DNA of 52,629 nt from an uncultured bacterium (GTDB lineage Bacteria; Muiribacteriota; Ozemobacteria; Ozemobacterales; Ozemobacteraceae). Under the pieces are notes generated by a model, which had not been told where the DNA came from, made no database searches, and saw only the letters and a program-made list of their open reading frames with translations. The stretch is from positions 1 through 52,629 of the forward strand of contig CAZADH010000011.1 of NCBI GenBank assembly GCA_964483805.1, given 5' to 3'. The position numbers and the translations under genes were made by a program. This document shows, one piece after another, positions 51,722 to 52,629 of this stretch. Every line of letters begins with the position of its first letter. The first letter of the stretch is position 1.

Positions 51722-52629
51722 CGCTGAGGTACAGCTGCTCTTTGAACAAGTGAACTGGTGACCGCAAAGGCGCGAACTTTCGAGCTGCGGCCAACCACCC
51801 GCATGTAGGGTTCTTAAGATGGTATGCAGGCAGTCGGTGACGGTTGTTCTGGTATCTGAAGGGAAACAATGACCTCGGGATCCAGGGTGGTTTAAGAGAA
51901 AGTTCGGCGTCAGAAGGTTGAAATGTCATGAGGGTAGGCGCCCCGCAAGGGGAGATGCGGCTCTTGCTGTCCGGAAGCCCTGTGGAGGTCGAAAACCTCG
52001 CGAGGGTTGGGGGAAACCCCAAGGCGGCAACGAGAGAAGACCCTGAAGACAGGAAGGTCAAGAGAGTTGTTCTGCCGTCCGCGGGTGAAACCGTTGGCGA
52101 AAACAGAACGCTCCAGATCGGGAATAACACTTCAAGGTCGGTCCAAGCCTGAGAGGGGAGCCAGTCTCGCAAGAGACCAGGAGCCCGGTGCGCGATGAAT
52201 CCTGACGGGTAAAGCCGTGGGGGTTATCCTGTCTCATGAGAACAGGTCGCGATATCGTGGATGGAAACCCTGAGAGGCAGACAACGACGTAGGAGTATGG
52301 GCCTGGAAACGGGTGCCGATCGATCTGGGGTCAGACTCTGAAGACACAACCCTCGGAGTGCTAGTGGGATGGAACAAGCCCACAAACCAAGGTGACGTAG
52401 GTTCGTTGTGAGGTTGCGAAAACCTGGGAACGGACAGCGCGAAGGCAGGAATCTTCGCAGTCGCGAATCTTTGGTGAAGGCGCTGTAAGGGAAGAAACCC
52501 AGGAAGGCGTTGGGACTCAAACCAATGAAGATGCGCGGTCAAACCCTCTAGCCGGCTGAAGCTCAAGAGAGGATATCATGGTTCCGCAAGGTCCTGTGGT
52601 TCCTGTGGTGAGGGCCTCGAAGGTGGTAG
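51722..52629 (+). ncRNA. Candidate giant structured non-coding RNA (3' end beyond window)
   Basis: At least 908 nt with no credible protein. It has many GNRA-capped hairpins (for example CCCC-GCAA-GGGG, TTGGGG-GAAA-CCCCAA, GTCTC-GCAA-GAGAC) and long-range helices, and no 16S or 23S 5' signature. Confidence 0.72.
51736..51750 (+). promoter_or_regulatory. boxA antitermination (NusB/S10) element
   Basis: TGCTCTTTGAACAAG, compared with the E. coli rrn boxA TGCTCTTTAACA. Confidence 0.7.

Follow-up and report, generated by a model that had tools for sequence, protein, structure and literature searches.

A boxA-like element at the start of a large noncoding RNA gene of the Ozemobacteraceae

Why should a sequence resembling the antitermination signal of ribosomal RNA (rRNA) operons stand at the start of a transcript that has no rRNA behind it? 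The question is raised by a 15-nucleotide (nt) boxA-like element, TGCTCTTTGAACAAG, at positions 51736-51750 on the forward strand of a 52,629-nt stretch of DNA (the window), which is the entire contig C11 of an Ozemobacteraceae metagenome-assembled genome (MAG; G000, 488 contigs, 6.53 Mb, 95.7% complete). To our knowledge, Nus antitermination is regarded as dedicated to rRNA, with phage nut sites, a few mRNA leaders, and CRISPR arrays as the known exceptions, and an RNA chaperone role for the Nus complex, in which the leader is held until the trailer appears, has been argued for ribosome assembly only. The answer that we reach is that the element is probably a working boxA, the site where NusB and S10 (NusE) nucleate an antitermination complex, and that it appears to have been taken over by the gene of a stand-alone, structured, purine-rich noncoding RNA (ncRNA) of about 1.14 kb in this family of the Riflebacteria. 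This folded RNA of uncultivated Riflebacteria, 1.1 kb long, is newly described here, and the conserved motif at its start suggests that it is made with transcription machinery normally reserved for rRNA.

The motif and its counterparts in rrn operons

The element lies just inside a predicted transcript. A -35 hexamer TTGACT (51687-51692), a 17-nt spacer, and a -10 hexamer TGTAAT (51710-51715) form a promoter at 51687-51715 on the forward strand, with a moderately A/T-rich tract at about 51666-51686, upstream of the -35 hexamer. The position of this promoter predicts a transcription start at about 51722, from which the element begins about 13-15 nt into the transcript (about +13 to +27), with its core GCTCTTTGAACA at 51737-51748; the sequence-only reading that first drew attention to the locus had placed it about 15 nt after the start, and that placement stands. 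A consensus promoter scan of the window did not list TTGACT-17-TGTAAT, as the scan demands A at the second position of the -10 hexamer. We assigned the promoter because it aligns with those of the orthologues, which are near consensus: all of them have TTGACA-17-TAnAAT and an A/T-rich, UP-like tract. The 5' oligonucleotide of the window that carries the motif is 5'-GCUGCUCUUUGAACAAGUG-3', and its counterpart in the family consensus is AGAUCUUUGAAAA.

What carries the case is the whole motif, together with where it lies and how well it is conserved, and not the short core. Among 58 copies of the RNA there are 34 distinct 5' regions, every one of which contains G-W-T-C-T-T-T-G-A-N-A-A, with the consensus GWTCTTTGANAA. 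Position by position, the counts (n = 34) are G 30, A or T 33, T 33, C 34, T 28 with A in the other 6, T 34, T 34, G 33, A 34, any base, A 33, and A 34; C2, T4, T5, A7, and A10 of the consensus are invariant (34/34). The motif begins 48-50 nt after the start of the -35 hexamer in 26 of the 34 regions. The pattern TGCTCTTT[N]AACAA, searched on both strands, occurs once in the 6.53-Mb assembly, where base composition leads one to expect about 0.003 exact 15-mers.

The conserved sequence fits known boxA elements. NusB and NusE recognize 8 nt of boxA (PMC3177189), the gammaproteobacterial consensus is GYTCTTTAANA (PMC5725501), and the Bacillus subtilis rrn boxA AUGAUCUUUGAAA binds NusB, as seen by nuclear magnetic resonance (PMC13753749). 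The orthologue consensus equals the B. subtilis rrn boxA GAUCUUUGAAA (PMC13753749), and UGCUCUUU in the window matches the Escherichia coli consensus UGCUCUUUAACA at 8 of 8 positions before continuing as G-AACAA. Together with the matches to rrn leader and spacer boxAs of the family described below, these identities uphold the earlier description of the element as an rrn-type boxA.

A comparison with the rrn boxAs of this very genome, which had been proposed along with that description, succeeded in part. No 16S or 23S gene is present anywhere in the assembled MAG, and a search of it for the 16S-leader boxA/boxC signature of the family returned a single false positive in coding DNA, hence the comparison was made in relatives, where the match held. 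In relative G008, the 16S leader boxA reads AAG(T/C)TCTTTGAGAATCAG (leader element GYTCTTTGAGAA) and the 16S-23S spacer boxA reads GTTCTTTGAAAATAA (element GTTCTTTGAAAA); the spacer boxA of G049 is GTGATCTTTGACAAGTG (element GATCTTTGACAA), and the leader boxAs of G015 and G058 are GGGCTCATTGAGAATAAG and GATATTTGAGAATAAG. We trained a weight matrix on the ncRNA sites, leaving out the window's own, and applied it to the rrn loci. Its top match there was the spacer boxA, which scored 18.4-20.2 bits in G008; in G049 it scored 19.3 bits, and no other match in 4.5 kb reached 8 bits. The 16S-leader boxA scored 11.7-15.4 bits and came second in one operon of G008 and third in the rest. The ncRNA motif is the same as the 16S-23S spacer boxA of these Ozemobacteraceae relatives, and a T-to-A variant, TCATTGA, is common to ncRNA copies and one rrn leader.

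When the ncRNA of G008 was compared with its own rrn operon by BLAST, the matches were short and insignificant, and the one recognized functional element among them was boxA/spacer boxA. Descent of the RNA from rRNA was rejected on this absence of similarity beyond boxA and of any match to the small-subunit or large-subunit rRNA (SSU, LSU) models. The rRNA genes of the family are themselves variously arranged: in genera g4 and g7 (loci L051 of G058, L052 of G055, and L056 of G006), 16S is followed by a short spacer, a terminator-like hairpin, and then protein-coding DNA, not 23S, and the rRNA genes there seem unlinked; G008 and G049 have linked 16S-23S.

The RNA behind the motif and the helices that enclose it

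The window holds the first ~908 nt of the ncRNA (51722-52629, forward strand), cut by the contig end, and the remaining ~230 nt of its ~1.14 kb lie on another contig of the same MAG (C432:1-233). With nhmmer, C11:51729-52627 corresponds to profile positions 18-908 and C432:1-151 to positions 921-1067; the gap between the contigs is about 12 nt, and the assembly breaks within an RNA hairpin (GAGGGCCTCGAAGG...). C432 is shown to be the true continuation of C11 by its trailer, which pairs with the leader strands of the window via compensatory changes, and the contig break stems from the assembly and does not mark a repeat boundary with rRNA. An intrinsic terminator at C432:192-223 is followed by the T-run TTTTTGTTTG, and beyond it a 591-amino-acid (aa) open reading frame (ORF) lies on the opposite strand.

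Within the window, 51720-52629 contains no ORF of note. The Rfam 15 covariance models of known large ncRNA families gave no match at gathering scores in the window and none in three related loci; at E<=10, the segment 51300-52629 yielded only weak matches far below gathering scores (best E = 0.12), with no SSU or LSU among them. Membership in a known RNA family was rejected, the matches to 'drum', P17, and snoRNA models falling far below threshold. The near-complete relative G008 has the whole arrangement on one piece of DNA: a TTGACA-17-TACAAT promoter, TTGATCTTTGAAAAACG at the place of the window motif, about 1.1 kb free of ORFs, a terminator hairpin with a T-run, and then protein genes. Its four rrn operons are located elsewhere and have different leaders, and no rRNA occurs within 10-11 kb downstream of the RNA in G008, G023, or G003. 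The earlier statement that no rRNA follows the motif is borne out once the transcript is extended through C432 and the complete loci of relatives, in which a terminator after ~1.14 kb is followed by protein genes. The sequence-only reading had named an rRNA operon on the extended contig as what would refute it, and none turned up.

Of 24 other genomes of the family, 19 have this RNA conserved, at 65-76% identity. More than 30 orthologues, each with its own promoter and intrinsic terminator, measure 1113-1171 nt with a G+C content of 44-59%, and they are mostly single copy, with differing neighbors. In a 166-nt core, 96.2% of alignment cells are paired and 21 of 43 pairs show compensatory changes; a covariance model of this core had matches in 45 of the 50 other family genomes, in all six genomes from one genus in a second family (f3), and in none of nine further families in the phylum. 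Three genomes (G006, G010, and G052) carry two copies each, which have diverged (L061 and L062 in G052). The f3 copies (L082-L086, genus g23; covariance model E about 1e-10, length ~1165 nt) follow the same plan of an A/T-tract promoter, an outer helix built from GCTTTGAACATTT with AAATGTTCAAAGC, an inner helix, and a terminator; no 16S was found in any of nine f3 genomes for a boxA comparison there. Three public MAG records that contain the RNA (L024, L031, and L044) are labeled Erysipelotrichia, Candidatus Methylomirabilis, and Proteobacteria. The core of L031 is identical to that of the copy in family-f1 genome G012, and at least this label looks wrong; the RNA could act as a lineage marker.

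Two helices of 10 bp each, formed by the two ends of the RNA, flank boxA on either side. The leader strand of the outer helix (P1a), GCTGAGGTAC at 51723-51732 on the forward strand, pairs with GTGCCTCAGC at C432:165-174, and that of the inner helix (P1b), GTGAACTGGT at 51750-51759 on the forward strand, pairs perfectly with ACCAGTTCAC at C432:135-144. Helix statistics were taken from alignment A1, which has 28 sequences. The outer helix joins columns 20-29 with 1253-1262, just before the terminator, and has compensatory changes in 7 of 10 pairs; the inner joins columns 53-62 with 1226-1236, has 95.6% of cells paired, and likewise shows compensatory changes in 7 of 10 pairs. Taken together, 88.8% of cells are paired, versus 27.6-38.5% when the partner is slid, 14 of the 20 pairs are compensatory, and the observed covariation was reached by 0 of 500 shuffles. 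The helices of the source MAG depart from the family consensus through such compensatory changes. The helices flanking boxA covary, and the motif between them does not. Complementary, covarying flanks enclose the product here as the leader-trailer helix encloses rRNA, and this covariation, with conservation over the full length, sustains the earlier view of a long functional transcript.

Pairing within the stalk varies with the lineage. By the predicted start, boxA lies early on the sense strand, and the strands able to pair with it or its flanks sit about 1.1 kb downstream. Co-fold energies for leader and trailer range from -19 to -48 kcal/mol, and the boxA core is left in one of three states: bulged out over 9 nt in genus g4, within an internal loop in other genera, or partly paired with an 'anti-boxA' in the trailer, as in G000 (UUUGAAC with GUUCAAA) and in L010 (UUCUUUGA with UCAAAGGG). 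Such pairing does not explain the conservation of the motif, which is the same whether its partner is changed or missing. Genus g11 has a local GNRA hairpin (CTCCTC-GCAA-GGGGAG) directly before boxA in place of the outer helix, and the motif is retained; a local hairpin immediately ahead of boxA is the arrangement of B. subtilis rrn leaders (PMC13753749). About one third of orthologues also have a conserved CTTTTTAGCC between the trailer strand and the terminator (A1 columns ~1263-1272; L008, L006, L010, and L012), for which the counterpart in G000 is TCTATTTAACC; genus g4 is without this element.

A role for boxA and the alternatives

From these features we infer Nus binding, antitermination, a chaperone effect, and any processing at the locus, in a sequence of events that might run as follows. 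The strong promoter with its UP-like tract would start the transcript at ~51722, and the outer leader strand (the first 10 nt), boxA, and the inner leader strand would emerge in that order, their partners following 1.1 kb on, before the terminator. While still single stranded, the emerging boxA would recruit NusB-S10 and other Nus factors to RNA polymerase. The modified polymerase would then rapidly transcribe the long untranslated RNA, resisting Rho, while the bound boxA would hold the leader strands at the RNA exit channel until the emerging trailer closed the helix and clamped the ends of the folded RNA. A boxA-anchored leader with which the trailer pairs on emergence is the model for 16S rRNA (PMC10250234). 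In several lineages, the partial boxA complement in the trailer could dislodge the Nus proteins as transcription ends. We give the folding role at least as much weight as Rho resistance, because the low C content of the RNA makes it a poor target for Rho anyway. The host has nusB on contig C76 (113 bits) and a rho gene divided between the ends of contigs C45 and C440 (387 and 233 bits).

A bolder proposal, which we put forward only tentatively and with more doubt than conviction, is that this is a giant, abundant, rRNA-like housekeeping RNA whose biogenesis is wholly borrowed (UP promoter, boxA/Nus, leader-trailer helix, and probably RNase III) and which folds cotranscriptionally into a large particle. 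If that were true, the rrn transcription complex would be a general assembly machine for giant RNAs and not dedicated to the ribosome.

Several observations weigh against a working boxA. The source MAG offers no rrn boxA of its own for comparison. The window motif has one A more than its orthologues (GA-A-CAAG), and the site scores 4.6 bits on the ungapped matrix; the low score comes from this 1-nt insertion, and the site is therefore judged by the alignment, where it is in register. In f3, the place of boxA is invariantly GUGUUCAGUUUGACAAG (GUUCAGUUUGACAAG), in which 2 nt are inserted into the core. The trailer of some lineages is able to pair with much of the motif, which may also be structural in the mature RNA. 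The RNA is purine rich (A 29%, G 30%, C 21%, U 20%), and the excess of G over C makes it a poor Rho substrate with less need for protection from Rho. Frequency is no help either: the 8-nt core alone has 670 matches in G000, mostly in coding DNA, and a 12-mer version has 26 matches in the AT-rich relative G008 versus 18 for a reversed control, and we dropped motif frequency as stand-alone evidence.

Some of these points feed an alternative that we consider unlikely, in which the motif only resembles boxA, has no Nus role, and acts in the mature RNA through its specific sequence, as either a dedicated protein site or a tertiary-contact loop. The place of the motif within the closing stalk, bulged or in an internal loop once folding is complete, is typical of protein-binding sites, the f3 copies keep the place of the motif with a core altered by 2 nt, and the 12-mer is not rare in AT-rich DNA. 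Against this stands the identity of the motif with the rrn spacer boxA of the family and with the NusB-binding consensus of B. subtilis (PMC13753749), which would require convergence at 12 of 12 positions. The fixed promoter-proximal position speaks for a working boxA as well, as does retention of the motif where a local hairpin replaces the outer helix.

We give a low probability to the idea that the stalk is chiefly a signal for RNase III or other processing, with boxA marking cleavage or surviving as an inactive relic of a copied rrn promoter-leader cassette. The architecture is that of an rRNA processing stalk (PMC10250234), and a promoter with a UP-like tract and boxA resembles an rrn cassette. 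A relic would decay, however, and five positions of the motif are invariant across genera in which the flanking helices have completely turned over; nor is there any similarity to rrn leaders beyond boxA.

It is very improbable that the transcript is an ordinary, very long rRNA operon leader whose 16S or 23S gene was lost at the contig break. The contig does end 880 nt past boxA in a MAG without any rRNA, and rRNA is the usual cause of such breaks, but C432 carries the RNA on to its terminator and then to protein genes, no rRNA lies within 10-11 kb in the three relatives, and the rrn operons of G008 are elsewhere. A chance match in noncoding DNA has next to no probability, since for all the frequency of the 8-nt core, the full motif occurs once in the assembly and keeps its register in all 34 distinct 5' regions of the orthologues, a conservation that refutes it.

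If the element works as boxA, the locus is a natural nonribosomal RNA of rRNA-like size with boxA and a covarying clamp, compact and easily mutated, and the help that the Nus complex may give to RNA folding over long distances could be studied on it as a second and independent substrate. The locus further singles out a new large RNA, in a candidate phylum, that is probably both abundant and important. For annotation it supplies a rule, in which a promoter is followed by boxA and a long ORF-free stretch, and this rule picked another candidate boxA leader in the same MAG. At the second site, on contig C213 (locus L087, ~1702-2110), a TTGACT-17-TAGGAT promoter precedes a hairpin, GGTCG-atc-CGACC, and then GGGTTCTTTGAAAAC, with a core identical to the G008 spacer boxA. 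Beyond it are about 340 nt free of ORFs, a small ORF, and an XRE-like regulator, and a transfer RNA (tRNA) gene lies ~800 nt upstream; the site has the look of an antitermination leader, nut-like or rrn-like, in an integrated element.

Two other features of the window were noted. A 48-aa zinc-ribbon ORF at 51370-51516 on the reverse strand is divergent from the RNA promoter; as a conserved partner of the RNA it was rejected, because tblastn over the other fetched loci returned only the self-match, and its adjacency lends no support. At 20328-21128, also on the reverse strand, four tRNA-Ser genes, one tRNA-Arg gene, and a large signal recognition particle RNA (Bacillus type, 256-nt model) form a tight cluster with a promoter-like TTGATT-17-TACCAT upstream, and no boxA was found ahead of it.

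Comparison with known systems

Large structured RNAs of restricted taxonomic range are known from other bacteria. OLE, GOLLD, and ROOL (PMC12286853) resemble the RNA described here in their size of 0.6-1.1 kb and their many covarying helices capped by GNRA loops. This ncRNA differs from them in its rRNA-style biogenesis signals, and it has no covariance-model match to OLE, GOLLD, ROOL, HEARO, or raiA. Our literature search found no paper linking boxA with OLE, GOLLD, or ROOL, nor one linking Riflebacteria with noncoding RNA.

Phage lambda nut sites (boxA-boxB with the N protein) share the use of boxA to recruit NusB-S10 to a termination-resistant polymerase. The locus described here differs in being a single-copy chromosomal gene kept across a bacterial family, without a boxB hairpin after boxA, an N-like gene, or a phage context, and the 10 nt that follow boxA pair with the far 3' end of the RNA; it is not a nut site in the lambda sense.

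Further precedents are the boxA elements found outside rRNA on bacterial chromosomes, in the 5' untranslated region of suhB and in other mRNAs (PMC5725501) and in the leaders of CRISPR arrays (PMC13753749). As in the Ozemobacteraceae, boxA stands in these cases shortly after the promoter of a nonribosomal transcript, and in CRISPR arrays it shields a long untranslated RNA from Rho. These transcripts are gammaproteobacterial mRNA leaders or repeat arrays, however, and none of them is one large folded RNA clamped by its leader and trailer. By its own statement, the survey of boxA in PMC5725501 left noncoding RNAs out of consideration.

The arrangement also amounts to a compact version of the rrn precursor itself, in which boxA and the leader-trailer system operate with NusB, NusE/S10, NusA, NusG, SuhB, and S4. 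The product here is not rRNA, and after 1.1 kb it stops at a terminator of its own. Its elements are packed more tightly: boxA lies between the leader strands, 1-3 nt from each, whereas the rrn boxA lies upstream of boxC and the stalk; most lineages are without a boxB hairpin, and in some the trailer partly pairs with boxA. What the two have in common is the motif, which is that of E. coli, of B. subtilis, and of the family's own rrn spacers, together with a strong promoter preceded by an A/T-rich tract and a purine-rich, structured product, long and untranslated, that a covarying leader-trailer helix encloses.

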